Source: a virus | Direction: 5' to 3' (one strand) | Virus record (IMG/VR): IMGVR_UViG_3300045988_074254 | Span: 1-25,388 of that record | DNA: 25,388 bases | In this document: piece by piece, positions 1 to 25,157 of the stretch | How positions within the stretch are numbered: position 1 is the first letter of the stretch | Layout of the letters: every line of letters begins with the position of its first letter | Notes under the pieces: model-generated | Seen by the model: the letters and a program-made list of their open reading frames with translations, nothing else | Told to the model about the DNA's origin: nothing | Databases searched by the model: none | Position numbers and translations under genes: made by a program

Positions 1-90
1 TTGATGTTATTTACATCATTATCTACGTGTTTTGATAACACTTTGTTGTTTTGTACCCCAAAATGTACCTCACCGCTTCACGCAAGAAAG

Positions 91-119
91 ATAATACAGT
101 ATAAACTATATTATGTCAA
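91..119 (-). promoter_or_regulatory. Candidate sigma-A-type promoter pointing out of the left edge of the window
   Basis: Minus strand reads TTGACA (119-114), 17 nt, TATTAT (96-91), starting 24 nt downstream of the endolysin stop. No ORF follows in the remaining ~90 nt, so any target is off-window. AT-rich DNA gives such matches by chance. Confidence 0.3.
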
Positions 120-142
120 ACATTTTTTTGTATTTTTTTATT

Positions 143-1219
143 TTATTCAATTTCTGTTAACGGTGTTGGATCAACCCAAACACCACCAATCTTGACAATA
201 TTCTTTTGAACATTCACTGCATCGACTCTGATTCTAGATACGTAGACTACTGCATTTGTGGTATGCAGTACATTGTCATTATATCCATCTGAATTTGGTA
301 CTTTGTCGACCAAACGAATTGGAAACCAACCACCTAATTGAGATAAGTAGCAACATAAATCATCACCAATCTTTTTCAAGCCTTGATTACCAATCTTCAT
401 ATGCACAGAAGTAACATAGCTGCCTTCGTGCAAGATTTGGTCGATAGCTTCTGCGCTAGACTGTGTGGCGCCAACTGGCACATGAGGGTCTGTATCAATA
501 CCAGCATCATTAGTCCATCCAATCGCTACTCCATTACGATCAACACGATATGGATATTTGGTTCCTTTAATTACTCTACCAATGACACCTGACCAATCAC
601 CTTTTTTAACTGTAGAAGTTCCGTAGCAATTCACACTCAATGTGTTTGTACAGATAGGTAAATTAACTGAATATTTTTCTCCACTTGGAGTTGTAGGTTT
701 TGGTGTTTCAACCTTTCCATCTAACTTTGCATTTACTTCATTAGCCAATTGTGGCATACGTGCTTCCAACCATGCTCCAGGGCATGATGTAGCCGCAAAC
801 ATTTTGTGCATAGTCAATGATCCGCTAGAATTTCCTGTATAGTTCAATCTAAATCCATATCGTTTACAAATATCAACACATAGATTCACCAAGCTATCCC
901 AAGTAGCTTGCGTCATTTCTCCAGTTGCGTTATTAATGTTTCCACATTCAATTGTAATTGATTGAGAATCATTCAACCAATTTGAACTTGTCCATGCAGC
1001 ATTTTCTTCATCAACACTGCATGCAATGTCTCCATTAATTCCAATACAATAATTGGAAGATGCTTGACGAGTATTTCGTGCAAAATAATCTGCGCATTGT
1101 TTACCACTCCATGCCGCAGCCATGTAGTGTGGAGTGATTTTACAAACCTTATATCCAAAACGACCATCATAATGTTGTGATGTTCTGTTACAATATGTTG
1201 CTAATCCGGAATACGACAT
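143..1219 (-). CDS. Endolysin: N-acetylmuramoyl-L-alanine amidase (Amidase_2/PGRP type) with a C-terminal putative cell-wall-binding region
   Basis: 358-aa ORF, last gene of the operon, just after the holin. The N-terminal ~170 aa carry Amidase_2-like motifs (KITPHYMAA, SSNYCIGINGDI, AWTSS..ND.SITIE, TMHKMFAATSCPG with His/Cys Zn ligands). A Pro/Thr linker (ETPKPTTPSGE) is followed by a ~170-aa C-terminal region that looks SH3b-like (tentative). Confidence 0.85.
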   Translation of the reverse strand: MSYSGLATYCNRTSQHYDGRFGYKVCKITPHYMAAAWSGKQCADYFARNTRQASSNYCIGINGDIACSVDEENAAWTSSNWLNDSQSITIECGNINNATGEMTQATWDSLVNLCVDICKRYGFRLNYTGNSSGSLTMHKMFAATSCPGAWLEARMPQLANEVNAKLDGKVETPKPTTPSGEKYSVNLPICTNTLSVNCYGTSTVKKGDWSGVIGRVIKGTKYPYRVDRNGVAIGWTNDAGIDTDPHVPVGATQSSAEAIDQILHEGSYVTSVHMKIGNQGLKKIGDDLCCYLSQLGGWFPIRLVDKVPNSDGYNDNVLHTTNAVVYVSRIRVDAVNVQKNIVKIGGVWVDPTPLTEIE

Positions 1220-1314
1220 TCTTCATCTACACCTTCTTCCTTGCCATTGCTTAATTCTTCTTTTGCTTCTTCTGATAGATTCTCATAATCTACTACTTTT
1301 TCTTCATCATTCAT
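1201..1314 (-). CDS. Unlisted 37-aa highly acidic ORF between holin and endolysin
   Basis: ATG at 1314 lies 7 nt after GGAGG. It translates to MNDEEKVVDYENLSEEAKEELSNGKEEGVDEECRIPD, with TAG at 1203-1201. It fills the 97-nt holin-lysin gap and overlaps the endolysin start by 19 nt. It is below the ORF-track length cut-off. Confidence 0.3.
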   Translation of the reverse strand: MNDEEKVVDYENLSEEAKEELSNGKEEGVDEECRIPD

Positions 1315-1316
1315 TA

Positions 1317-1538
1317 TTATTCCTCCGGTACACTAATTTCAGGTAATCCGCCAATACTAGTCAGCAACGAGACGATGCCTGACAAAAACGCTGACGAAAT
1401 TACAACTCGCCAATCAACGGCTTCCAATAATGCAGATGCTCCAATAACACCAACAGCAGTTTGAGCAATTGTCTTTAATGCTCTAATACTTGCATAATAG
1501 CCATATTGAATCCACCATTCTTTACTATATTTTTTCAT
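1317..1538 (-). CDS. Holin (two-TM, r1t/LL-H-like)
   Basis: 73 aa with two hydrophobic helices (TIAQTAVGVIGASALLEAV; VVISSAFLSGIVSLLTSIGG) and an acidic C-terminal tail. GGAGG lies 9 nt upstream of the ATG. It sits directly upstream of the amidase. Confidence 0.7.
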   Translation of the reverse strand: MKKYSKEWWIQYGYYASIRALKTIAQTAVGVIGASALLEAVDWRVVISSAFLSGIVSLLTSIGGLPEISVPEE

Positions 1539-1578
1539 TTACAAATACCTCCTATCCTAATAATAGTATTTAAATCGT

Positions 1579-1596
1579 TTGTACACTGTACAAAAT
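1579..1596 (-). promoter_or_regulatory. Box A: TTGTACACTGTACAAAAT (TGTACA-C-TGTACA), candidate late operator or promoter element upstream of the holin
   Basis: Identical 18-mer to 25320-25337, in the same orientation. It is intergenic, 41 nt upstream of the holin ATG, and its 3' end overlaps the U-tract of the cassette terminator. Confidence 0.45.
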
Positions 1597-1619
1597 AAAA
1601 GACCGTATTTAACGGCCTT
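1592..1619 (-). terminator. Intrinsic terminator closing the orphan cassette
   Basis: Minus-strand RNA AAGGCCGU-UAAAU-ACGGUCUU forms an 8-bp stem with one G-U pair, followed by UUAUUUU. The stem includes two bases of the stop codon of the 1618-2091 ORF. Confidence 0.6.
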
Positions 1620-2091
1620 ATTGATACATATTAAACATGTCTCGTATATGTGTCTTAATCATTGTTTTTTCTTCATCTGAATCAACGCATCCATGAATCA
1701 TAGTTACGATTTGTTGCATACATTTCATAGTCTTATCTAATTCACGATGAGACTTTTCTAAATCCATATCACCTTTTGTACGCTCATATTCTTCTTTGAA
1801 CGCTTTATATTTTTTCAAATGTTCTGCAAGCTTATAAACAATATCTTCTGTTTCTGGATCATGAATATTATATCCATCATTATCTTCTTTTAATCTTGCG
1901 ACAGTTGAAACTCCATCTTTTCCTATCTCAATTTGATATTTATTTCTCATTGCTTCTATAGTTTCAATGTCTTTGATATTATCTAAAGCTTGAGATAATG
2001 CGTGGAAATAAGATTCTGCATATCCGTATTTCTCTAACATGTTTACTGACTCATGCATTATCTTTTCATTAACTTCCATTGCTTTATGCAT
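1618..2091 (-). CDS. Hypothetical all-helical, Met/His-rich protein (cassette gene 5)
   Basis: The ORF track starts at GTG 2100 with no SD. The ATG at 2091 (MHKAMEV...) is preceded by TAGGTGA at 5 nt and is preferred. No recognisable family; charged and coiled-coil-like in composition. Confidence 0.55.
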   Translation of the reverse strand: MHKAMEVNEKIMHESVNMLEKYGYAESYFHALSQALDNIKDIETIEAMRNKYQIEIGKDGVSTVARLKEDNDGYNIHDPETEDIVYKLAEHLKKYKAFKEEYERTKGDMDLEKSHRELDKTMKCMQQIVTMIHGCVDSDEEKTMIKTHIRDMFNMYQ

Positions 2092-2100
2092 ATTTTTCAC

Positions 2101-2520
2101 CTACGCAATCTTTTTAATGATGATATTTGCATTTTGAACAGATAGATCTAAACCACTGTTATTTGCTAATGCAATTGTATAAGATGCGCCACATGGAACT
2201 TGAATTAGAGTGTCTCCACTTACATTTCCATACGCACTTGCAGTTGCAACAGTATAAATAGATTGTGTTCCACCAATTGCTTCTCCATTTAGCTCAAGCA
2301 CTAGAGAAGCTTGTCCTGGCGTTGCACTCGTAATATCCGCAGTATAAGTTATTTCATAGATACCTGGCTTTGTTAGTGTAAACAATCCACTTCCTAGATC
2401 ATGAGCAAGCCAACCTTTACATGGGCACTGGCAAGATTTGCTTCTTACTCTGTCTGTTGGAAATAATACATTTTGTCCATTCGCTACTGTCTGAACAGCC
2501 GTAGCAATACTATTAATCAT
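2101..2520 (-). CDS. BclA C-terminal-domain-like (C1q/TNF-like jelly-roll) protein without a collagen stalk (cassette gene 4)
   Basis: 139 aa; AGGAGG lies 8 nt upstream of the ATG. Motifs PGIYEITY, LVLELNGEAIGGT and the C-terminal NANIIIKKIA parallel, as I recall it, the Bacillus BclA CTD (GFYKITV, LTIQVNGVPVPGT, SASIIIEKVA). There are no G-X-Y repeats. Confidence 0.6.
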   Translation of the reverse strand: MINSIATAVQTVANGQNVLFPTDRVRSKSCQCPCKGWLAHDLGSGLFTLTKPGIYEITYTADITSATPGQASLVLELNGEAIGGTQSIYTVATASAYGNVSGDTLIQVPCGASYTIALANNSGLDLSVQNANIIIKKIA

Positions 2521-2544
2521 TTCTTTTATCCTCCTATTAAAATA

Positions 2545-2566
2545 GGGATAGCCTTTCGACTATCCC
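2545..2566 (-). terminator. Intra-cassette GNRA-tetraloop hairpin (attenuator or RNA-stability element)
   Basis: Minus-strand RNA GGGAUAGUC-GAAA-GGCUAUCCC forms a 9-bp stem with one G-U pair, followed by UAUUUUAAU and then the SD of the BclA-like gene. Only 25 nt remain before the ATG, so gene 4 must be expressed by read-through. Confidence 0.4.
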
Positions 2567-2607
2567 GTTAAATCCAAAGGCAATTGCCTAATCACATATG
2601 TGCTAGA

Positions 2608-3231
2608 TTATAAGTTGTTGTAGCCATTACATCCACATCCGTTGTTGTAAGCGTAATATGGTGAACATGTAATGTAAGCTGGTTTTGGTGTTGGCTGCAA
2701 AGTATTAATGATATTTGCTGATTGTGCCTGTTGACTTAATTGGAAATTAGCCGTCAATAAATCACGGTCACGATCAGCTAAACGATCACGTAATTCTTGC
2801 ATAGTATTTGCATTGATCAATGCACGTGTTGCTTCACCTTCTGAATGAATTGCTGTTGTAATGTCACAAGTATTTTTGAAACTTTGAGCATTTACATTGT
2901 CAATTGCTCGTTGAGTGTTGCAGCAGCATTCTTGTTGCTGAGCTTGCAAGTTTTGAAGTCCTAACTGATTAGTATAGCGACTTTCTAATACATCACGTTG
3001 AGTTTGACAACCTGTTTGAGATACATTTGTGTTTGTGTTAAAAATGTCTCGTTTAATGAATTCTTCATTCAATAAAGAATCATTTGTTAGGTTTCCGTTG
3101 CCATATCCTCCATATCCAAATAATACGAAGATTAGCAAGATCCAAATCCACCAACCTCCTCCGTCTCCAAAGCCGTCATTTCTTTCGGCTAAGTTGTAAG
3201 TTGGTTGAATTCCCATTCCGTTTTCCATCAT
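2608..3231 (-). CDS. Single-pass membrane protein with Gly/Trp-flanked TM helix, coiled-coil and Cys clusters (cassette gene 3)
   Basis: 207 aa; AAGGAG lies upstream of the ATG. The TM segment is GGGWWIWILLIFVLFGYGGYG (about aa 24-44). A Q/N-rich helical region contains GCQTQ, ECCCNTQ and NTCD. The C-terminus is ITCSPYYAYNNGCGCNGYNNL. Confidence 0.6.
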   Translation of the reverse strand: MMENGMGIQPTYNLAERNDGFGDGGGWWIWILLIFVLFGYGGYGNGNLTNDSLLNEEFIKRDIFNTNTNVSQTGCQTQRDVLESRYTNQLGLQNLQAQQQECCCNTQRAIDNVNAQSFKNTCDITTAIHSEGEATRALINANTMQELRDRLADRDRDLLTANFQLSQQAQSANIINTLQPTPKPAYITCSPYYAYNNGCGCNGYNNL

Positions 3232-3272
3232 ATATGTTCTCCTTTCTTTCTATAATAACGGTTTAGCCGTTG

Positions 3273-3515
3273 TTACCTGATTCCAAACTGTTTTGCCATT
3301 TGTTGCAGTTGTTGCTTTTGTTGTGGATTTAAATTACCCATCATCTGATTTAAAATCATTTGTGGATTTTGGCCACTGTTCATAAGCATTTGAAATTGTT
3401 GAAATGCTTGTGGATTTTTCTGCGACAACATATTCATTAACATTTGTTGGGGATTTCCCATATTCATCATATTCATTGGATTCATATTACCCATAATACT
3501 TTTTAAAGGATTCAT
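3273..3515 (-). CDS. 80-aa Met/Asn/Gln-rich repeat protein (cassette gene 2)
   Basis: The ATG overlaps the upstream stop as ATGA (3512-3515). It has 16 Met, 13 Asn, 17 Gln, six Asn-Pro dipeptides (NPL, NPM, NPQQ, NPQ, NPQ, NPQQ), no Asp or Glu, and five basic residues. Confidence 0.55.
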   Translation of the reverse strand: MNPLKSIMGNMNPMNMMNMGNPQQMLMNMLSQKNPQAFQQFQMLMNSGQNPQMILNQMMGNLNPQQKQQLQQMAKQFGIR

Positions 3516-3961
3516 TTTGTTTGTGCTCCTTTCTTTGGCTGTTCATTAGCTTGTTTTGGTGGTTTGCTTAATGCACATATCAAATCATCTAATTTCTTTT
3601 CGATTCCATTTACACGATTTTCTATACTGTTAGAAGCATCTTCCGTGATTTCTTCAAATTTAAATTTTTTAAATGTTCCATCTAAAGATTTCATATAAAA
3701 AATAGATTTATTGTTATCAAATAAAATCGTTGGTAAATTTGCATTCGCAAAGTTTCTAGCTTCATTCTCATCATTCACCCATTTTCCATTAAAATCAAAA
3801 TTACCTTGTTGTTGTGGTGTAATCTGATTATTAATATTGATAGGTGGAATATTTGCATACTGTTGTACTTGCTGAATTTGTTGATCTATCATTTGTCTTT
3901 GCTGCATCAAACTGTCAATTCGTGCTTGTGCTGGATTATAATTGTTATACATTTCAACCAC
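3512..3961 (-). CDS. Gln-rich hypothetical protein (cassette gene 1)
   Basis: 149 aa; AAGAGGTGG lies upstream of the ATG. The N-terminus is a Q-rich helix (LMQQRQMIDQQIQQVQQ), the middle looks globular (FNGKWVNDENEARNF...IFYMKSLDGTFKKFKFEEI), and the tail is C-terminal coiled-coil plus a basic end. Confidence 0.6.
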   Translation of the reverse strand: MVEMYNNYNPAQARIDSLMQQRQMIDQQIQQVQQYANIPPININNQITPQQQGNFDFNGKWVNDENEARNFANANLPTILFDNNKSIFYMKSLDGTFKKFKFEEITEDASNSIENRVNGIEKKLDDLICALSKPPKQANEQPKKGAQTK

Positions 3962-3978
3962 CTCTTTATTACGCTTTA

Positions 3979-4007
3979 ATTATATGGTTACGCAACAAAT
4001 AATTTAA
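3979..4007 (-). promoter_or_regulatory. Candidate promoter of the orphan cassette
   Basis: A perfect TATAAT (3984-3979) lies 17 nt from the start codon at 3961 and downstream of terminator 4035-4067. The -35 at 17-nt spacing is only TTAAAT (4007-4002). Confidence 0.3.
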
Positions 4008-4034
4008 TACTCGAATAATACTCATAAAATACCC

Positions 4035-4067
4035 AAAATAAAATGAGCAACCATTATAGATTGCTCA
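4035..4067 (-). terminator. Intrinsic terminator after the sigma-region-4-like gene
   Basis: Minus-strand RNA UGAGCAAUC-UAUAAU-GGUUGCUCA forms a 9-bp stem with one G-U pair, followed by UUUUAUUUU. The gene's stop codon lies in the loop. Confidence 0.6.
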
Positions 4068-4287
4068 CATATTTATCGAACATTTTTCTTGCTTTGCATA
4101 CTCTGTTCCTTATGGTTTGTACTTCCATATGTAATGCATCTGCAATTTCGGTACATGACATATCATATACATATCTCATAATCAAAATCTGTTCATATTT
4201 CTTTCTTAATCCAACAGATTTGATAAGTATTAATGCATCATTAGGACGTATCTCTTTTAATCTGTTAGCTTTGTTAATATAAACCAC
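4054..4287 (-). CDS. Stand-alone sigma-70 region-4-like (or YlxM-like) HTH protein
   Basis: 77 aa. KKYEQILIMRYVYDMSCTEIADALHMEVQTIRNRVCKARKMF matches the region 4.2 HTH pattern, and regions 2 and 3 are absent. The GTG start has a poor SD, so the start is uncertain; it may be coupled to the upstream stop 9 nt away. Confidence 0.5.
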   Translation of the reverse strand: MVYINKANRLKEIRPNDALILIKSVGLRKKYEQILIMRYVYDMSCTEIADALHMEVQTIRNRVCKARKMFDKYVSNL

Positions 4288-4295
4288 CGCCTTAA

Positions 4296-4529
4296 TTAAA
4301 TTCGTTGGTTTGAATTAGCTTCGCAAGAACAATTATTCACATGATCATCTTTCCAATAACCACAACAAACAATAGTAGAATAAAGAACAATAATCACTAA
4401 AACCAATACTGTAATAATCGTTCTACTTGTTTTATAGTTTCTATCAATTAATTTTGAGCAAAAACCATAAATGTTATCTACTTTTTCTTCTACATTTTGA
4501 AGTTTCTTGTTTGCATCTTTAATATCCAT
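4296..4529 (-). CDS. XhlA-like membrane protein (N-terminal coiled-coil, C-terminal TM, Cys-rich tail)
   Basis: 77 aa. The coiled-coil is ANKKLQNVEEKVDNI, the TM is TIITVLVLVIIVLYSTIVCCGYW, and the tail is NNCSCE. It lies after the XkdX-like gene, as in PBSX. Confidence 0.45.
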   Translation of the reverse strand: MDIKDANKKLQNVEEKVDNIYGFCSKLIDRNYKTSRTIITVLVLVIIVLYSTIVCCGYWKDDHVNNCSCEANSNQRI

Positions 4530-4812
4530 TTTTATTACGATCCTCCAACGCTTCTACACGTTTAAACAAAGTAGTTATTTGTTCTTTTATTTGAGAAAGC
4601 TCCACTTCCATTGAATTGCTTCCTTTTTTAATTTCTGAAATTGAATCTTTAATATCACTTAAATCTGATTTAATATGTTCTAATTCATTCTTCAAAAATG
4701 CCATATTGGATATTTGCTCTCCATCCATCTTACGTGTGCCACGATTATACGTAATAAATGCAATTACAAGCATGCATGCAGAAATAATAACACTAAGATA
4801 TTCTCCACTCAT
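4519..4812 (-). CDS. Membrane-anchored coiled-coil protein (N-terminal TM)
   Basis: 97 aa. The TM is LSVIISACMLVIAFITY, followed by NRGTRK. The heptad-like region is ELEHIKSDLSDIKDSISEIKK...LSQIKEQITTLFKRVEALE. The SD is AGGTGAT. Confidence 0.5.
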   Translation of the reverse strand: MSGEYLSVIISACMLVIAFITYNRGTRKMDGEQISNMAFLKNELEHIKSDLSDIKDSISEIKKGSNSMEVELSQIKEQITTLFKRVEALEDRNKNGY

Positions 4813-4823
4813 AAAAACATCAC

Positions 4824-4946
4824 CTATTTATTAACGATAGAATTTTTTTGTTCTACACTAATCCATCCAATAGAAGCAAAAATTTCTAAATCATTATTTG
4901 TAAATAAACCTAATTCATAATACGATTTAATTAATTCATAACTCAT
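4824..4946 (-). CDS. xkdX: XkdX-family small phage protein (unlisted ORF)
   Basis: A 40-aa ORF, MSYELIKSYYELGLFTNNDLEIFASIGWISVEQKNSIVNK, fills the 4813-4947 gap. The pattern (YYE.GL.T..D...FV..G.I) fits XkdX as I recall it. GGGGTGA lies upstream of the ATG at 4946. Confidence 0.6.
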   Translation of the reverse strand: MSYELIKSYYELGLFTNNDLEIFASIGWISVEQKNSIVNK

Positions 4947-4947
4947 A

Positions 4948-5292
4948 CTACTTCACCCCATTCATCTGAGCTTTTAACTGTGCGATTTGTAACATTAATT
5001 GTGCGTTAATCTTCTCTTGCTCAGTTGGCACTGCTTTTGGTTCTTCGATTGTTGGTTTGTCTCCTTCTGCAACCTCAATCACTTTACCTTCTACAAATTT
5101 GTAGTTATATCGACCTAATTCATCAACTAATCCTTTTTCTAGATACTGACTTTGAGCATGAGCGTATTTATCACCTTGTCCTTTGTCAATCTCTGTCATA
5201 GTTGACATTTCTTCTTCTGATAAGAAGATTTCTGAATTAATAGATGTGATGTATCCATCTTGTAATGATACATATACTTTATATTCGTTCAT
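4948..5292 (-). CDS. Hypothetical protein in the XkdW position (possible fibre accessory or chaperone)
   Basis: 114 aa, between the receptor-binding fibre and XkdX, with a C-terminal coiled-coil (INAQLMLQIAQLKAQM). The assignment is positional only. Confidence 0.4.
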   Translation of the reverse strand: MNEYKVYVSLQDGYITSINSEIFLSEEEMSTMTEIDKGQGDKYAHAQSQYLEKGLVDELGRYNYKFVEGKVIEVAEGDKPTIEEPKAVPTEQEKINAQLMLQIAQLKAQMNGVK

Positions 5293-5301
5293 AGCTTCCT
5301 C

Positions 5302-6195
5302 CTAATAAATTTCTGCGTCTACACTTATTGTTGTATCGTTTAAATCTACACCAATTGCAGTATTGTTTAATGAGGTATCTACAGGATTTGTATATACACG
5401 TAAGTATTGATTATTTGCATAGCCATTGGTTGTGTTAAACGAGATTTGTTTACCTGTTCCGTTAACTCTAAGAAAAGTTTGCTTGTTAGCCCCTGTAAAG
5501 ATTACATTTCGACTATTTCGCATATAAACGCCCCTTGCAAAAGGAATATATATAGCGTTATTAGCTCCATAGCCGGCTAATGAACTCTCTAGAACTACAT
5601 AGAATCTTTGACACTTCAAAATTTCTTCCGCATAATTTGGAGCAATAAATTCCGTAGCTACTTTACCTTGTTCCAATTTAACCCATTTAAGAGTTATGTT
5701 AGTTCCTCGATTCAAAAAGATTGTAAATGCTTTTGTGCTCTTACTTGTATGTACAACATTTAATCCTTGTTTCAATACAACTTGTGAATTATCATCTGCC
5801 ACCATTGTTACCGTTCCGCTTACAGATGTTACATAGCATGATAATGTAGAATCACCTTCCGTCGCATTTTCTAAATATTGTAGAAAAGTTCCGGTATCTG
5901 TGTATTTGTCATTCTTGACTGTAATACCTCCATTAGCGTTTGACGTAACTGTTACATTCCAAATTTTCCAACGGTCTACTGAATAACCTTGTTTTTCGTA
6001 GCTCGTAGCACCTCTTTGATTGATTTTAAAATCCGGATTAATCAATAAATTCGGATTACTGAATTTTTTTCCTAAATAATCAGCTAGTTGCGATAATAAA
6101 CCTTTTTTCAATCCTGCACCATTGTGTACAGGCAATAAGCTATTATCAGTGAAACTAGGTAATGCGTCTAATTCTGTGACTTGTTTTCCTGGCAT
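5302..6195 (-). CDS. Tail fibre or receptor-binding protein (distal)
   Basis: The preferred start is ATG 6195 (MPGKQVTEL...), with AAGGAGG 6 nt upstream and 1 nt after the upstream stop. The motif NLLINPDFKINQRGATSY...YSVDRWK recurs in Firmicute phage fibre tips. The C-terminal half is beta-rich. Confidence 0.6.
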   Translation of the reverse strand: MPGKQVTELDALPSFTDNSLLPVHNGAGLKKGLLSQLADYLGKKFSNPNLLINPDFKINQRGATSYEKQGYSVDRWKIWNVTVTSNANGGITVKNDKYTDTGTFLQYLENATEGDSTLSCYVTSVSGTVTMVADDNSQVVLKQGLNVVHTSKSTKAFTIFLNRGTNITLKWVKLEQGKVATEFIAPNYAEEILKCQRFYVVLESSLAGYGANNAIYIPFARGVYMRNSRNVIFTGANKQTFLRVNGTGKQISFNTTNGYANNQYLRVYTNPVDTSLNNTAIGVDLNDTTISVDAEIY

Positions 6196-6196
6196 G

Positions 6197-6442
6197 TTAT
6201 TCCTCCTTAATTTTATACTTCCAATCCGTTCCGACTTCTCCACTTGCTACTTCGTAAGACCAGTCAGCTAGGATTGTATTTCCTTTTTCATCCACTAATT
6301 CTTGAGCGCTTGTTGCGTTCAAATTTGTAGTAAAGTGGTTATTCATAACCATTTGATTCAATGCATTATGTGATGTGGTTACAGACTTTATTTTCGAGAC
6401 AAGCCACTGAATAGAAGCTTTGTCTTTGAATACGAAAGCCAT
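6197..6442 (-). CDS. Small fibre-associated protein (chimeric N- and C-terminal motifs)
   Basis: 81 aa. Its N-terminus resembles that of 6446-7054, and its C-terminus carries the ILADW.YEV / DWKYK motif also found at the end of 7700-8608. Confidence 0.5.
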   Translation of the reverse strand: MAFVFKDKASIQWLVSKIKSVTTSHNALNQMVMNNHFTTNLNATSAQELVDEKGNTILADWSYEVASGEVGTDWKYKIKEE

Positions 6443-6445
6443 ATG

Positions 6446-7054
6446 CTAACCCCACATTGTGTTTAAATCATTTGTAGTAATCGCAGTTAATTCTGATTTC
6501 TTAACATACGCCGATAAATCAATGTCTGTATTACCAATCTTTTCAAATGTTTTAGTTTCTGAAAGCCAAATATACTCATCATAAATATCTTGAGTTCCAT
6601 GTGAATGTGCAACCAAATAAATAACACCATTTGAACCTGTAGCAGGTAAGCTTGTTACCTTTTCATATCTAATAGATGTGATATTACCGACTGCCGAATT
6701 AATCAACGATTGTACTTGTGATTGCGTTTGATACCCTTTAGCCGTGATAATTGACTCAACGCTCGTTGCCGACTGATATCCACTGTCATTCGTTAATTGC
6801 GATGTCTTTGTCGGTACTGTAACATCTACGGCTTTTGAGCTTGGCGTTAACTTCGTACCATTTACCTTTACCGACTCAATCACGTTCACTTGAGCACCAT
6901 TTGCGATACCACTTAATTTTTGCTTTTCTGCGCTTGTGTAGTCATTTGTCGATAAGCCTTTACCACTTACAACGTCAACTTTTCCACCTAATGCAGATTT
7001 AATCTTACTGATTAAGAGCGTCAATCCACTCTTATCTAAATATTCAATAGCCAT
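6446..7054 (-). CDS. Tail fibre protein
   Basis: 202 aa. Fibre-type motifs are YLDKSGLTLLISKIK, GKGLSTNDYTSAEKQKLSGI and TSQLTNDSGYQS. Confidence 0.65.
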   Translation of the reverse strand: MAIEYLDKSGLTLLISKIKSALGGKVDVVSGKGLSTNDYTSAEKQKLSGIANGAQVNVIESVKVNGTKLTPSSKAVDVTVPTKTSQLTNDSGYQSATSVESIITAKGYQTQSQVQSLINSAVGNITSIRYEKVTSLPATGSNGVIYLVAHSHGTQDIYDEYIWLSETKTFEKIGNTDIDLSAYVKKSELTAITTNDLNTMWG

Positions 7055-7065
7055 TCTTTTTCCTC

Positions 7066-7395
7066 CTATAGACTATTCCATAATTCATCTAGTTCGATTG
7101 TTGATACAGATGTTACAGAACCTTCTGCCATAGCCCCTACATCTTCCGGAGTGTATACCGGTCTTGTTTCTGCTTTTGCCCATTTCGGAACTGTTGGGTC
7201 TATTTCTTCAACTTCACCAATGATTTCATTTCCATTTAATTTAGGTTTGTTTCTGAGCTTGTTATAGTCGGATGTGCCTCCTCCATATTGTTCCTTGACT
7301 TCTAAATTCAAATCATCACTATTTCCATCTACTTCTATATCAATCTGCTCTGAGTCATCCTGAACATCCAACGTAACTTGATTCATTAAAATCAT
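7066..7395 (-). CDS. Tail fibre-associated protein
   Basis: 109 aa. Motifs DYNKLRNKPKLNGNEIIG and VPKWAKAETRPVYTPEDVGA are typical of Firmicute phage fibres. It has an ATGA overlap with the upstream gene. Confidence 0.5.
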   Translation of the reverse strand: MILMNQVTLDVQDDSEQIDIEVDGNSDDLNLEVKEQYGGGTSDYNKLRNKPKLNGNEIIGEVEEIDPTVPKWAKAETRPVYTPEDVGAMAEGSVTSVSTIELDELWNSL

Positions 7396-7691
7396 GTAAT
7401 CACTTCCTTATCAAGGATTCTATGTACTGTAGTTGTAGCTATTGAGCTTGCTATCGCTAACCCATCTTGTGTTATAGCTCTTAATTGTACGTTAACTATC
7501 CCTTTCTTGAATTTAAGTGTTTCTTCTTGTGTTAATGTGATTCTAATTTCATCATCTTCAATTTCAATTTGAGACATATCTTTTCTTAAAAGATGTCCAT
7601 CTTGCTCAAATGTAATGTAAACACTTTTTAATTCACTTAAATCTATATTGTTAACATTTATAACAATTGTCGGTGTTGTTCCTTGTCTCAT
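7392..7691 (-). CDS. Small Ig-like baseplate or fibre module (QG[DT]T type)
   Basis: 99 aa, beta-rich, with N-terminal MRQGTTPTIVINV. Its size and motif match the paralog-like ORF at 8611-8904. Confidence 0.45.
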   Translation of the reverse strand: MRQGTTPTIVINVNNIDLSELKSVYITFEQDGHLLRKDMSQIEIEDDEIRITLTQEETLKFKKGIVNVQLRAITQDGLAIASSIATTTVHRILDKEVIT

Positions 7692-7699
7692 AATCTCAC

Positions 7700-8608
7700 C
7701 TATTCAACTTTATATCGCCAATCTGCTTGCAATATGTTATTTTCTTCATCTATCAGTTCAGAATCTATATCAATTAATAAAGGTGTATAAAAATGGTTAT
7801 CTAATATCATTTCCATAATATTAGAAATCTGTATTCTTATCGCATTTCCAGCTGTTGAATAAATTTTTCCGTCATATCCTATACGAATATCCGTTATTTC
7901 AGTATTGGCATCAGGCAAGCTTCCTGAATCGAATAATTGATCTACTCTAGATTTCAGAACATTTAAATCCTCAAAGCGTATGCCATACTTGGAAATTAAA
8001 TCATTTAATTCTTCAATCCCTGAATCTTTTATATTTGTAATTGTTGTTACACCTGTATCACGTGCTTCTCTTATATCTTTCACTGCTTGATTGCACTTTT
8101 CGGACACTAGTAAAAGCATCATCGCAATCTCATCTCGTTCATTTTGATCTAATGAAGCAGATTTTGAATATATACTTTCAGGAGTAACAACTCTTGATAG
8201 TGTAGTAGCCCATCTTTTTTGAATGTTTCCATCATCATCTACAATAACCGCACTCACCACAAAATAAAGATCACCTTTATTTTTTAATGCGTTATTAGGT
8301 ACGATCCAAGCAAATTCACACGTATCATAGTAAGTAACTTTATCTGTAGTTATACTTGACCCAATAATGTTTTTTGAATCTCGATAATTAACTCGTATTA
8401 AAGCATCTTCCATTTTAAATATTTCTGAAACCGTATTTATAACCCTAAACCGAATATATTTAGAATCTTTATCGTATTGAACACCAAATACGTTTTCAGG
8501 ATCAGGGATATAAATCTCACGAGTACGTGCATCAATAACAAGTGTCTCATTATCTACACCTGCATATGTATCTAAGTCAAAGCTTAAAGTTGCATTTAAT
8601 TTAGCCAT
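7700..8608 (-). CDS. Baseplate or fibre structural protein
   Basis: 302 aa in the baseplate module. It has a central coiled-coil and ends in NNILQADWRYKVE. Confidence 0.45.
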   Translation of the reverse strand: MAKLNATLSFDLDTYAGVDNETLVIDARTREIYIPDPENVFGVQYDKDSKYIRFRVINTVSEIFKMEDALIRVNYRDSKNIIGSSITTDKVTYYDTCEFAWIVPNNALKNKGDLYFVVSAVIVDDDGNIQKRWATTLSRVVTPESIYSKSASLDQNERDEIAMMLLLVSEKCNQAVKDIREARDTGVTTITNIKDSGIEELNDLISKYGIRFEDLNVLKSRVDQLFDSGSLPDANTEITDIRIGYDGKIYSTAGNAIRIQISNIMEMILDNHFYTPLLIDIDSELIDEENNILQADWRYKVE

Positions 8609-8610
8609 TT

Positions 8611-8904
8611 CTACCCTCCTCTTACTATCAATGTACCAGATAACGGTGTATCATGAATACCATTTGCCATTACTCGAATAGCCCAAGAATAAGTTCCAAC
8701 TTCTAAATCATCTGTAGGACACCTGATTTTTAAATCATCTTTAATTTCAACACATTTAACCATTTTAAAATTTTTCATAATAACAAATAAACATTGATCT
8801 TTTTCTCCAGGTATAAATGTGTTTCCACTTTTGAAATTAAAAGATATTTCAGAAATGATAGTATCACCTTGACGAATAAAGATATGATCTCTTTTTATCT
8901 CCAT
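8611..8904 (-). CDS. Small Ig-like baseplate or fibre module (QGDT type)
   Basis: 97 aa, beta-rich, with IFIRQGDTIISEISF near the N-terminus. Confidence 0.45.
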   Translation of the reverse strand: MEIKRDHIFIRQGDTIISEISFNFKSGNTFIPGEKDQCLFVIMKNFKMVKCVEIKDDLKIRCPTDDLEVGTYSWAIRVMANGIHDTPLSGTLIVRGG

Positions 8905-8919
8905 GTATGCTCCTTCCTT

Positions 8920-9957
8920 CTACTTATATAGAATTGCCTTTTTCCATTCCAATCCATCAAAAACAAATAATCTACATAACTGATAATTACTTCTATTCTG
9001 TGTAACTGCTAATGAATAGCCCCGTTTCCATCTTGTTCCATCAAACCTCCACACTTCCATGTGTGTAAACGTTGTATTGAATTTAACGTTCACCCATGAA
9101 GATGTTCTGTCTAATGAATCTGTAACAAGTACTTGAATCGTTCTTTCTGTATTTTTTGGAACAGAATATAGCTTAAATTCTCTAGAATCCACTGTGTTTT
9201 GACTTGATCCATCTTTGTATGTTACTGATTTAACATGTCCATCATCCGATGTATGTACAGTGAATTTCACATCATCTGTATTTCCACTACCTTTGATAAT
9301 TTCAAAATCTACATAAGTTACATATACAGAAGCGTAGTTTTCCAATGTAGTGGCCTTTAATACCGTTTGTGACAATCTATTTCCGCTACAGTCTGCCATA
9401 TAAGATTCTACATGAAATTCATATTCTGTTTTCTGAGTAAGACCAGTAAAAGTATAATTTCCATTTAAATTATTACTTACAAATTGTTCATCCTTATTAG
9501 AATATAAACGTAATGTATATAAGTTATATGGATTCGTTTTCAACTTTCCAAAAATTGAAATGTCATTGTTTCCAACACCTGATATCCATGCATCATATGA
9601 TGGTAAATCAATTAATGGTGTAGTCAATCTTGCTTTCCCCGATAAATTAGGAAAGCCTTGACAACTCGCATCCCATTCAAAATACCGTTGTCTATTGCAG
9701 TACATAGGGTCATTAATTTGTCCTAGATAATACCATCCTGAATCCTGGATATAATTTAAATCCCATCTTGAAATAGTTTTAGAAAGTCCTCCGAGAGTAA
9801 CAACATTGTTTGCTTGGATTTTGAAATTTCCGGTGTATCTAAACCTTACATCCGCTTTAAATCTTAAATTAGGATACGAACCTTCGTATCTCTCGTTGTA
9901 AGATTCAAACGTAAGCATTAAATACGGATTATAGGTTAACGTTGCTAAAACAGTCAT
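8920..9957 (-). CDS. Baseplate protein with fibronectin-type-III-like domain(s)
   Basis: 345 aa. NGNYTFTGLTQKTEYEFHVESY is a classic FN3 F-G strand signature. A second Ig/FN3-like segment follows (FKLYSVPKNTERTIQVLVTDSLDRTS). Confidence 0.5.
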   Translation of the reverse strand: MTVLATLTYNPYLMLTFESYNERYEGSYPNLRFKADVRFRYTGNFKIQANNVVTLGGLSKTISRWDLNYIQDSGWYYLGQINDPMYCNRQRYFEWDASCQGFPNLSGKARLTTPLIDLPSYDAWISGVGNNDISIFGKLKTNPYNLYTLRLYSNKDEQFVSNNLNGNYTFTGLTQKTEYEFHVESYMADCSGNRLSQTVLKATTLENYASVYVTYVDFEIIKGSGNTDDVKFTVHTSDDGHVKSVTYKDGSSQNTVDSREFKLYSVPKNTERTIQVLVTDSLDRTSSWVNVKFNTTFTHMEVWRFDGTRWKRGYSLAVTQNRSNYQLCRLFVFDGLEWKKAILYK

Positions 9958-24385: not shown

Positions 24386-24756
24386 TTAAATCTGCTCATG
24401 AACTCATCCAATTCATCACCTTTTTTTCCGGATACTTCTGTCGTTTTCGATAGTGAAGTAGGTGACAAGCCAAGTTCTTTGCAGTATTTCATGATCTGAT
24501 CACGTAATTGAACGGTAATAATGTAGTATGGCGAGCGCGATAAATTCGTTGCACCGCCCTTGTTCGTATATTCAACAACCATCTGTAGTGATTTGTAGCC
24601 ATTTGCTTTACTTGAATCTCTCCATTGCTTCATTGTTGAATCATATTGGGCCAAGGCATCTGCAAGTGAATCAACCGCAACCGAATATTCAGGAGAAAAT
24701 GTGCCTAAATTCTCTAGTTGTGAATTGATTCTTTTTTTCCATGCTCCTTTTTGCAT
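24382..24756 (-). CDS. terS: Terminase small subunit (P27 family)
   Basis: 124 aa. The pattern NKGGATNLSRSPYYIITVQLRDQIMKYCKELGLSPTSLSK fits the family. GGGAGGA lies 7 nt upstream of the ATG. Confidence 0.8.
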   Translation of the reverse strand: MQKGAWKKRINSQLENLGTFSPEYSVAVDSLADALAQYDSTMKQWRDSSKANGYKSLQMVVEYTNKGGATNLSRSPYYIITVQLRDQIMKYCKELGLSPTSLSKTTEVSGKKGDELDEFMSRFK

Positions 24757-25157
24757 TCATCATCCTCCCTTCCACATCCTATAAGCATTCCGTTTTCATC
24801 AAATTCAAAAGATGGTTTACGTTTGGAATGTTCTTCAGCATGGCATAAGTCACACAACGCTTCCAAATTAGAATCGCCAAATAGAATGTGTATATCTCTA
24901 TAGTTGTCCTGGTCAATGTGCACTTTGTGGTGCACGCAAGTCGACCTGGTATAGATACCTTTTTTCAAACATCTTTCACAAAGTGGATGTGCCTTCCTAT
25001 ACGCTTTGCTTTTCTTTTCCCAAGCCTTGCTTGAGTAAAATTTTCTAGCATAATTTCTAGCACCTGTTTTTGTTGCTTCTGAACCATAATATTTTTTCAT
25101 ATCGCTACATTCAAAGTTTTGACCATAACTACAGTTAACAGATTTAAAGGACGACAA
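24714..25157 (-). CDS. HNH endonuclease (terminase-associated)
   Basis: CERCLKKG...VHHKVH...NLEALCDLCHAEEH forms a Cys4 plus H-N-H motif. The start is uncertain: TTG 25157 lies one codon after an in-frame TAG, ATG 25100 is the alternative, and neither has an SD. Confidence 0.8.
   Translation of the reverse strand: MSSFKSVNCSYGQNFECSDMKKYYGSEATKTGARNYARKFYSSKAWEKKSKAYRKAHPLCERCLKKGIYTRSTCVHHKVHIDQDNYRDIHILFGDSNLEALCDLCHAEEHSKRKPSFEFDENGMLIGCGREDDECKKEHGKKESIHN

Follow-up and report, generated by a model that had tools for sequence, protein, structure and literature searches.

An ordered, mobile accessory gene module of gut Firmicutes phages in the late region of a Holdemanella biformis prophage

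RESULTS

Genes and features of the module

We analysed 25,388 nucleotides (nt) of viral DNA (IMG/VR record IMGVR_UViG_3300045988_074254, positions 1 to 25,388; hereafter the window, meaning the whole of this stretch), which is the late region of a siphovirus-type prophage with every sizeable gene on the minus strand. Exact-sequence look-ups of the window genes identified the host as Holdemanella biformis; the two proteins named O3 and O4 below correspond to WP_302129787 and WP_302129786, respectively. An earlier note on this DNA, made from the sequence alone, had described a five-gene orphan cassette, bracketed by two terminators and splitting a PBSX-type lysis module. Our analysis showed that positions 1592–4287 correspond to one copy of an accessory module that is conserved and mobile among Firmicutes phages, mostly those of the gut. 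All five minus-strand open reading frames (ORFs) listed in the note are present, with likely starts at ATG 3952 for O1 and ATG 2091 for O5, but the module has six genes in the window and up to eight elsewhere, and its first gene is the sigma-region-4 gene at 4054–4287, which the note had placed outside the five. From this gene onwards, the features are as follows.

4054–4287, minus strand: R4, 77 amino acids (aa), sigma-70 region-4-type helix-turn-helix (HTH) only (PF08281); first gene of the conserved module
4035–4068, minus strand: T1, intrinsic-terminator-like hairpin (4068–4043) and T-run; -15.4 kcal/mol, z = -5.0
4005–4023, minus strand: GAGTATTA-N3-GAGTATTA, a direct repeat in tandem (period, 11 nt) in the region expected for the -35 of the TATAAT
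3979–3984, minus strand: TATAAT resembling a -10, with no -35 recognised; the O1 ribosome-binding site (RBS) is about 20 nt downstream
3512–3961, minus strand: O1, Gln/Asn-rich coiled coil, small alpha/beta domain and C-terminal helix (phrog_21718)
3273–3515, minus strand: O2, 80 aa, helical repeats 'NPxxM' rich in Met, Gln, Asn and Pro; its start overlaps the O1 stop
2608–3231, minus strand: O3, hallmark core protein with a single transmembrane (TM) helix and conserved Cys; large family
2537–2566, minus strand: T2, internal terminator-like hairpin (2566–2545) and T-run; -17.9 kcal/mol
2101–2520, minus strand: O4, 139 aa, stand-alone BclA_C domain (TNF/C1q-like jelly-roll), above the PF18573 gathering score
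1618–2100, minus strand: O5, fast-evolving helical protein, 157 aa from the likely start ATG 2091
1592–1619, minus strand: T3, terminator-like hairpin (1619–1599) and T-run closing the module; -12.3 kcal/mol, z = -4.25

The layout in the window is therefore R4, T1, the GAGTATTA repeat with the TATAAT, O1-O2-O3, T2, O4-O5 and T3. The odd compositions that had drawn attention to these proteins were also found, with 20% Met and 21% Gln in O2, eight Cys in O3, and eight His and 7.6% Met in O5.

Distribution and gene order

To define the module we fetched 27 related loci from species-representative genomes and 80 from IMG/VR, and performed a census with an iterative hidden Markov model (HMM) for each component, scoring all six-frame ORFs, which covered about 115–116 loci. 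The recurring order was R4, T1, O1, O2, O3, (S), terminator, O4 or O4b, (F), O5, (F), with S and F, both missing from the window, given in brackets. In GenBank phages, tblastn placed O3 beside O4 in MT837318, MT838536 and Dulem virus 39, human-gut contigs included, and detected O3 in several Clostridium perfringens phages as well; the loci found in this way carried homologues of all five proteins in the same order. The contigs that bear the module belong to Erysipelotrichaceae, Lachnospiraceae, Oscillospiraceae, Clostridium and Bacilli, some of them being assigned to metagenome-assembled genomes (MAGs) of Bacilli and Mycoplasmatota, and they are labelled sipho-, podo- and myovirus alike. A cassette of six to eight genes recurs in thousands of gut Firmicutes phages. 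The word orphan does not apply, as every gene has many homologues; the O3 family alone exceeds 5,112 clusters at 90% identity (847 at 50%), all of them stand-alone proteins of 180–300 aa with no Pfam domain and no informative name.

The site of insertion differs between phages. In the Holdemanella phages the module lies between the XhlA-position genes and the holin, and it was in this place in 52 of the 52 related IMG/VR contigs carrying the 97-aa XhlA-position protein. In a second Holdemanella-type group (L085 5492–9375; O3 identity of 79–80%) it lies between a multi-TM holin and the endolysin, splitting a lysis cassette different from that of the window, which indicates that the interruption is not specific to a PBSX layout. 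It follows holin genes in loci L024 and L116, the integrase in Dulem virus 39, and tail genes in a 118-kb contig, while the genes for minor capsid protein 2 and the scaffold protein flank it in six Lachnospiraceae-type loci. In the C. perfringens phage CPD1 it is found among early genes, between KilA and a recombinase. The CPD1 locus (L002) also has, at 5005–5655 between the O2 and O3 homologues, an HNH-like 216-aa ORF that looks like a homing endonuclease. The smallest version is an O3+O4 pair that follows the tail fibre in L015.

Natural variants were also observed. One relative (L127; IMG/VR 3300045988_089490) has a 1.8-kb deletion from inside R4 to inside O4, equivalent to window 2418–4218, and two independent in-frame O1-O4 fusions (P0155, and P0206 in L168) lack O2 and O3; since these variants exist, the cassette does not appear to be needed for the rest of the element to be maintained. 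Carrying O3 may have a cost. Apart from the internal deletion in L127, no close relative without the cassette was found among the 52 contigs with an XhlA-like gene. Recent acquisition, as judged by a distinct base composition, was rejected, the GC content of the cassette (0.29–0.38) resembling that of the rest of the phage. Taken together, the same gene order in unrelated phages, found by both the HMM census and tblastn, and the varied positions agree with the earlier proposal of an intercalated accessory unit.

Regulator, terminator-like hairpins and promoter-like element

R4 matched Sigma70_r4_2 (PF08281, E = 2.2e-10), its sigma matches in Pfam being Sigma70_r4_2 and r4 only, with region 2 not matched; matches to NCBIfam sigma families covered only the C-terminal 45–50 residues and were all far below the cut-offs. 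Having region 4 only, R4 cannot be a sigma factor alone. A further match, to Phage_antitermQ (PF06530; E = 1e-4), covered model positions 64–110 only and scored 22.5 bits against a cut-off of 26. An R4-type gene was present upstream of O1 in most of the diverse loci, and although highly divergent it was always a small HTH of the sigma-r4 type. In L010, where the module carries such a region-4-only gene, a 106-aa ORF at 269–589, upstream of the terminase, matched Sigma70_r2 only (E = 3e-14), and the two may form a split or two-part sigma-like system.

The strong hairpin that the earlier note had placed after R4, with the R4 stop codon in its loop, proved to be real in the folding analysis, and so did the one closing the cassette 54 nt upstream of the holin start; both T1 and T3 folded far better than shuffled controls. 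The pair stood, but the picture of two bracketing terminators was incomplete, as it missed T2, which lies between O3 and O4 directly before the O4 RBS, dividing the cassette into O1–O3 and O4–O5. In other modules the small S gene is found where T2 lies here. A T1-like hairpin with a T-run followed R4 in 10 of the 12 scanned loci with an R4-O1 gap below 500 nt, and a hairpin preceded O4 or O4b at the T2 position in 12 of 19 divergent loci scanned. The stems of the T1 and T2 hairpins are unrelated in sequence between divergent modules, and their positions are shared. This part of the window is rich in terminator-like sites in general (11 found against 3.1 expected in 1–9000).

The perfect TATAAT at 3984–3979 reported earlier is present, and it was missed by a sigma-70 promoter scan because it has no -35. 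In its place, the octamer GAGTATTA occurs twice in the whole 25-kb window, both copies in the tandem repeat at 4005–4023, and at the equivalent place the relative L009 has AGTAT three times. Divergent modules likewise showed a TAAAAT/TATAAT-like element directly after T1, followed by the O1 RBS. The tandem repeat is therefore a candidate operator to which R4 might bind. The arrangement suggests a compact and conserved design, comprising a region-4-only HTH, a putatively insulating terminator, a predicted -10-only promoter and an internal terminator-like hairpin. Given the sub-threshold match of R4 to antiterminator Q, control by read-through of T1–T3 is an alternative mode by which R4 might act, and it would also explain how terminators are tolerated within head operons.

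O3 and the small beta-sandwich proteins form the core

Comparison of the window with L085 gave identities of 80% for O3, 86% for O4, 66% for O2, 53% for O1, 36% for O5 and 22% for R4; on these values O3 and O4 form a constrained core and the other parts are lineage-specific. O3 and O4 were among the slowest-evolving proteins of the module. O3 has a short N-terminus, a Gly/Trp-flanked TM helix, a helical domain built of repeated units containing a conserved CCC, and an invariant C-terminal tail (P.PAY[LI][TS]CSPY...GCGC), and its cysteines are conserved across homologues. The charge bias of O3 (2.1 Lys/Arg on the N side, 0.9 on the C side) weakly suggests an N-in, C-out topology.

The earlier reading of O4 as a jelly-roll like the C-terminal domain of BclA was correct. 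Residues 3–139 align with positions 5–128 of the 128 in the PF18573 model (E = 8.2e-12; 45.6 bits against a cut-off of 38), so that O4 is a true, full-length BclA_C member; it also matched phrog_20016 (E = 6e-20) and is named 'BclA C-terminal domain-containing protein' at NCBI, whereas direct comparison with the BclA sequences in the PDB was weak (E = 0.2). The O4 sequence showed no signal peptide, no stalk, no GXY repeats and no N-terminal exosporium leader, and in the last two respects it differs from BclA-type exosporium glycoproteins.

In other modules O4 is replaced by O4b, a 125-aa beta-rich protein with a Cys-rich N-terminus. Homology between the two was rejected (hhalign probability <1%). 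The family features of the endospore appendage proteins Ena (DUF3992) and F-ENA (DUF4183) were taken from PMC12357932; neither Pfam family matched O4 or O4b at E<=0.5-1, and the identification of O4b as such a protein was rejected. Co-evolution of O3 with either partner was also rejected, the O3 tree not tracking the presence of O4 or O4b. The module core is O3 plus a small beta-sandwich protein (O4 or the unrelated O4b), with R4, O1, O2 and O5 as faster-evolving accessories.

Accessory proteins

O1 begins most probably at ATG 3952 (146 aa) and O5 at ATG 2091, starts that agree with RBS spacing and with the gene calls of the near-identical locus L004. The AlphaFold2 (AF2) model of O1, of moderate overall confidence (predicted local distance difference test score, pLDDT, of 72.8), has a helix joined by a disordered linker to a small alpha/beta domain modelled with confidence (residues 59–101, pLDDT >85), which is followed by another helix. 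Foldseek gave no PDB match to it below E = 0.3, and its BFVD matches were all uncharacterised proteins of gut phages, on contigs labelled sipho-, podo- and myovirus; phrog_21718, to which O1 belongs, has no assigned function. O2 had no family match in Pfam, PHROGs or NCBIfam, and was kept directly upstream of O3 in 17 aligned loci.

O5 had only six homologues in a word-index search and no match in PDB or Pfam; a profile alignment of 14 loci revealed a conserved C-terminal D..EEK.MI motif. The profile alignments contained almost no invariant residues for O1 or O5, which argues for structural or adaptor roles over catalysis. The O5 homologues of L001, L021 and L031 have an insert of about 90 aa rich in Tyr, Arg and Gly (…ERRYYDNYRYANGRFAPKGSGTYRGR…EPPYYHMTPE…MYYTE) that resembles low-complexity structural or cross-linkable proteins. 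In some lineages the O5 slot is taken by a DUF7841 (PF25223) protein (L168 5821–6285, L115 11200–11709, L116 10299–10547), a family for which full-text searches retrieved no paper.

Of the two genes missing from the window, S encodes a protein of about 70 aa with a hydrophobic N-terminus and a charged helix. F (phrog_17879, 175–200 aa) was found in L003 (4604–5197), L002 (7322–7849) and seven other loci. It has no Pfam match, but its profile matched about 20 PDB ferritins, the matches being confined to helices A and B (E = 8e-4 to 0.05), and H31, H50, E119 and E155 are invariant. Homology between O5 and F was rejected (hhalign probability <1%).

Searches for known functions gave little. Pfam, NCBIfam, PHROGs and PADLOC returned BclA_C and sigma-r4 only for all module proteins; the PHROG matches were to families without assigned function, none of them in a structural category, and the PADLOC-DB 2.0 defence models gave nothing better than E = 0.009 for ten module proteins. 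Profiles of O1, O3, O4, O4b and O5 had no significant match, and none at E<0.1, to PDB sequences. These profile and structure searches agree with the earlier view that none of the proteins is a virion, lysis or known defence protein. For the DNA, megablast of window 1–6300 against GenBank phages gave no match and Rfam returned no RNA family in window 1–6500, while full-text literature searches retrieved no description of the module.

The surrounding prophage

The window genes are ordered as HNH, small and large terminase, portal, prohead protease, major capsid protein and a 1,277-aa tape measure, followed by distal tail and fibre genes, an XkdX-like 40-aa ORF, two coiled-coil membrane proteins, the cassette region, an r1t-type holin and an Amidase_2 endolysin. 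A near-identical contig of 99.7 kb has the host genes RadC, MreC and PolA starting just past the lysin, which places the cassette region at the prophage end. The immediate neighbours of the module are as follows.

4296–4812, minus strand: two coiled-coil membrane proteins (97 aa and 77 aa) at the XhlA position, upstream of the module
1317–1538, minus strand: r1t-type holin (PF16945, E = 4e-11), downstream of the module
143–1219, minus strand: Amidase_2 endolysin (PF01510, E = 7e-17), downstream of the module

The holin and amidase on the left and the XkdX-like ORF and coiled-coil membrane proteins on the right were thus as the earlier note had described, but its term PBSX-type is only loosely supported. 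The XkdX-like ORF scored 21 bits against the NCBIfam cut-off of 28.2 (TIGR01669), the coiled-coil proteins had only weak PHROG 'hemolysin' matches (phrog_937 and phrog_1193, E = 6e-5 and 7e-3) with no XhlA among the Pfam matches listed for window proteins, and the holin and lysin belong to families other than those of XhlB and XlyA. Two further ORFs were noted on the minus strand, a very acidic one of 37 aa (MNDEEKVVDYENLSEEAKEELSNGKEEGVDEECRIPD; 1201–1314) between holin and amidase that overlaps the amidase start, and the HNH endonuclease gene (24714–25157) immediately upstream of the gene for the small terminase subunit, as is usual for HNH-terminase pairs.

DISCUSSION

Possible function of the module

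We conclude firmly that the region is a widespread, mobile and ordered accessory module with a small regulator and conserved terminator positions; the conclusion on what it does is softer. The reading that we favour, tentatively and with a probability of about 0.4, is that of a position-independent, self-regulated, moron-like unit whose products would assemble a non-enzymatic complex, anchored by O3, capped by O4 trimers and acting at the envelope. T1 would insulate the unit from the operon in which it landed; R4, made from the upstream transcript, would bind the repeat at the -35 position and fire the -10-only promoter of O1; and T2 would lower the amount of O4 and O5 relative to O1–O3. The products have no enzyme-like conserved residues and therefore probably assemble and do not catalyse. 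In such an assembly O3 would anchor the complex in the membrane, and its hydrophobic segment may be held by the Met-rich O2 (a chaperone role that is only an idea); the O1 coiled coil and O5 would serve as adaptors, and the O4 trimer would form the terminal unit. The most likely site of action would be the envelope of the lysogen or infected cell, where the complex might, for instance, block entry or mask receptors; we do not favour an action on spores or in the virion.

Several points weigh against this reading. Promoter activity, terminator activity and R4 binding are all predicted from the sequence, and in several phages R4 lies 1–2.5 kb upstream of O1 and is not adjacent to it. Efficient terminators in essential head operons would be harmful unless read through. 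The sequences of O1, O2, O4 and O5 have no signal peptide, so that a surface assembly would need holin-dependent or non-classical export, or else a location on the cytoplasmic face. The O3-O4 interaction is putative; the independence of the O3 tree from the O4 or O4b partner leaves no co-evolution signal, and AF2 could not fold O3, the monomer model being unusable (pLDDT 46.9).

A more specific version, which we regard as doubtful, is that the module is a portable 'coat-building' kit, in which a sigma-region-4 mimic and a -10-only promoter would drive a membrane-anchored, cysteine-linked layer capped by TNF/C1q-like trimers that self-assembles in vegetative cells. Such a structure would resemble an exosporium nap formed outside sporulation, and might shield the infected cell or lysogen from additional phages or offer a gut-facing binding surface.

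That the products are cargo released by lysis, with a layout like that of Shiga-toxin phages, is in our view unlikely. Synthesised late, an O4 trimer and its partners would be freed by phage lysis and serve outside the cell as an adhesin, lectin, bacteriocin-like or host-interacting factor. This would fit the order of R4, terminator, cargo, holin and lysin in the window and of holin, module and lysin in L085, the proximity to lysis genes in L024 and L116, the weak match of R4 to Phage_antitermQ and the lack of a signal peptide in four of the five proteins; moreover, the TNF/C1q fold is typical of extracellular binding trimers. However, O3, the most conserved protein, is membrane-anchored and would not be freed, and the module is often distant from lysis genes, as in early regions, in head operons or after the integrase. 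Its promoter-like element comes after the terminator and not before it as in Q/pR'/tR', and the Q match is below the Pfam cut-off.

We consider it similarly improbable that these are accessory proteins of the virion (for example for decoration, ejection or auxiliary fibres) whose genes lie outside the core structural set. The module always lies on the late-gene strand, between minor capsid protein 2 and scaffold in the six Lachnospiraceae-type loci and directly after tail-fibre genes in the window and L015, but the early-region location in CPD1 and its occurrence in sipho-, podo- and myovirus-labelled contigs alike are difficult to reconcile with a structural role, as are its own regulator and terminators and the existence of deletion variants. 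TNF-like heads are common as receptor-binding tips, and the exchange of O4 for O4b resembles that of host-range cassettes; unlike receptor-binding proteins, O4 is among the slowest-evolving parts, and no PHROG structural category was matched.

Somewhat less probable still is a device for lysis timing or control, in which O3 and the small hydrophobic S, partnered by the soluble proteins, would modulate lysis or serve as an antiholin or a holin of the class-III type. The module is repeatedly found in or beside lysis cassettes, even parting holin from endolysin, yet many copies are distant from lysis genes and these phages already have standard holins. O3 is bitopic, and its large C-terminal domain, of about 165 aa, may be extracellular; S resembles BhlA-like peptides in its N-terminal hydrophobic segment and charged helix, a resemblance only; neither matched any holin or antiholin family in sequence, and six to eight genes would be a large number for such a device.

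The spore-surface idea of the earlier note, by which expression in the lysogen would decorate or reshape the spore or its exosporium, ranks lowest and is very improbable given the Holdemanella host: the BclA_C domain of O4, the Cys-rich partner O3, the Tyr/Gly/Arg-rich inserts of some O5 proteins, the ferritin-like F of other modules (which resembles CotJC, a coat protein with a ferritin fold) and spore-forming hosts such as C. perfringens speak for it, but H. biformis is described as non-spore-forming, O4 has neither a collagen-like region nor an exosporium leader, O3 has a TM anchor, which sets it apart from proteins of the coat and exosporium, neither a sigma factor nor a promoter of sporulation type was identified, and the module also occurs on contigs binned to Bacilli and Mycoplasmatota MAGs, non-sporulating lineages.

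The module is very common in phages of the human and animal gut, and all of its components are annotated as 'hypothetical'. Its regulatory design could be a general way to express cargo wherever it is inserted in a phage genome. If O3 and O4 form an envelope structure, or if a TNF/C1q-like effector is released, the traits that phages confer in the gut microbiome would include a new class; if the proteins are virion accessories, annotation would extend to a large block of 'dark matter' among phage genes.

Comparison with known systems

The lysis cassette of PBSX and SPbeta (XhlA-XhlB-XlyA) resembles the window in having coiled-coil membrane proteins after the fibre genes and an XkdX-like ORF, with holin and amidase nearby. 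It differs in that the XkdX match is below the cut-off and that the holin is of the r1t type and the lysin an Amidase_2; an ordered set of XkdX, XhlA, XhlB and XlyA homologues was not found.

The late region of Shiga-toxin phages, in which the Q antiterminator gene is followed by a terminator, stx and lysis genes, and the TcdR/TcdE and UviA/UviB loci for clostridial toxins or bacteriocins, which have a small sigma-like regulator, share with the module a small sigma-r4- or Q-like HTH, a terminator, signal-less cargo, a holin and a lysin, and the small holin-like S of some modules recalls the holin-like exporter of the latter two. Unlike these systems, R4 comprises region 4 only with a Q match below the cut-off, the promoter-like element of the module comes after the terminator, and the module is often not beside lysis genes.

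With the BclA-containing exosporium nap of the Bacillus cereus group and Clostridioides difficile, the module shares a true BclA_C domain in O4 and a cysteine-rich protein in O3, exosporium basal-layer proteins being cysteine-rich. In contrast, O4 is a bare 139-aa domain lacking a GXY stalk and leader, O3 is membrane-anchored, and the genes are phage-borne in a host that does not form spores.

The closest likeness is to morons, the autonomous promoter-gene-terminator units found between essential genes of lambdoid and other phages. Like them, the module is bracketed by terminator-like hairpins and has its own -10-like element, both conserved in position, in line with the transcriptional autonomy suggested by the earlier note and here read from sequence features; it sits at junctions between functional modules, at different sites in each phage; and it appears dispensable, as the one deletion variant indicates, with a base composition that matches the surrounding phage. 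Unlike them, it is not a single gene but a series of six to eight ordered genes with a regulator and a conserved internal terminator, and it is also found in the early region of CPD1, whose annotated genes are nearly all on one strand. Relative to a moron or lysogenic-conversion cassette, the novelty lies in the size of the module, in the regulator and internal terminator that it carries, and in protein families that are wholly uncharacterised.

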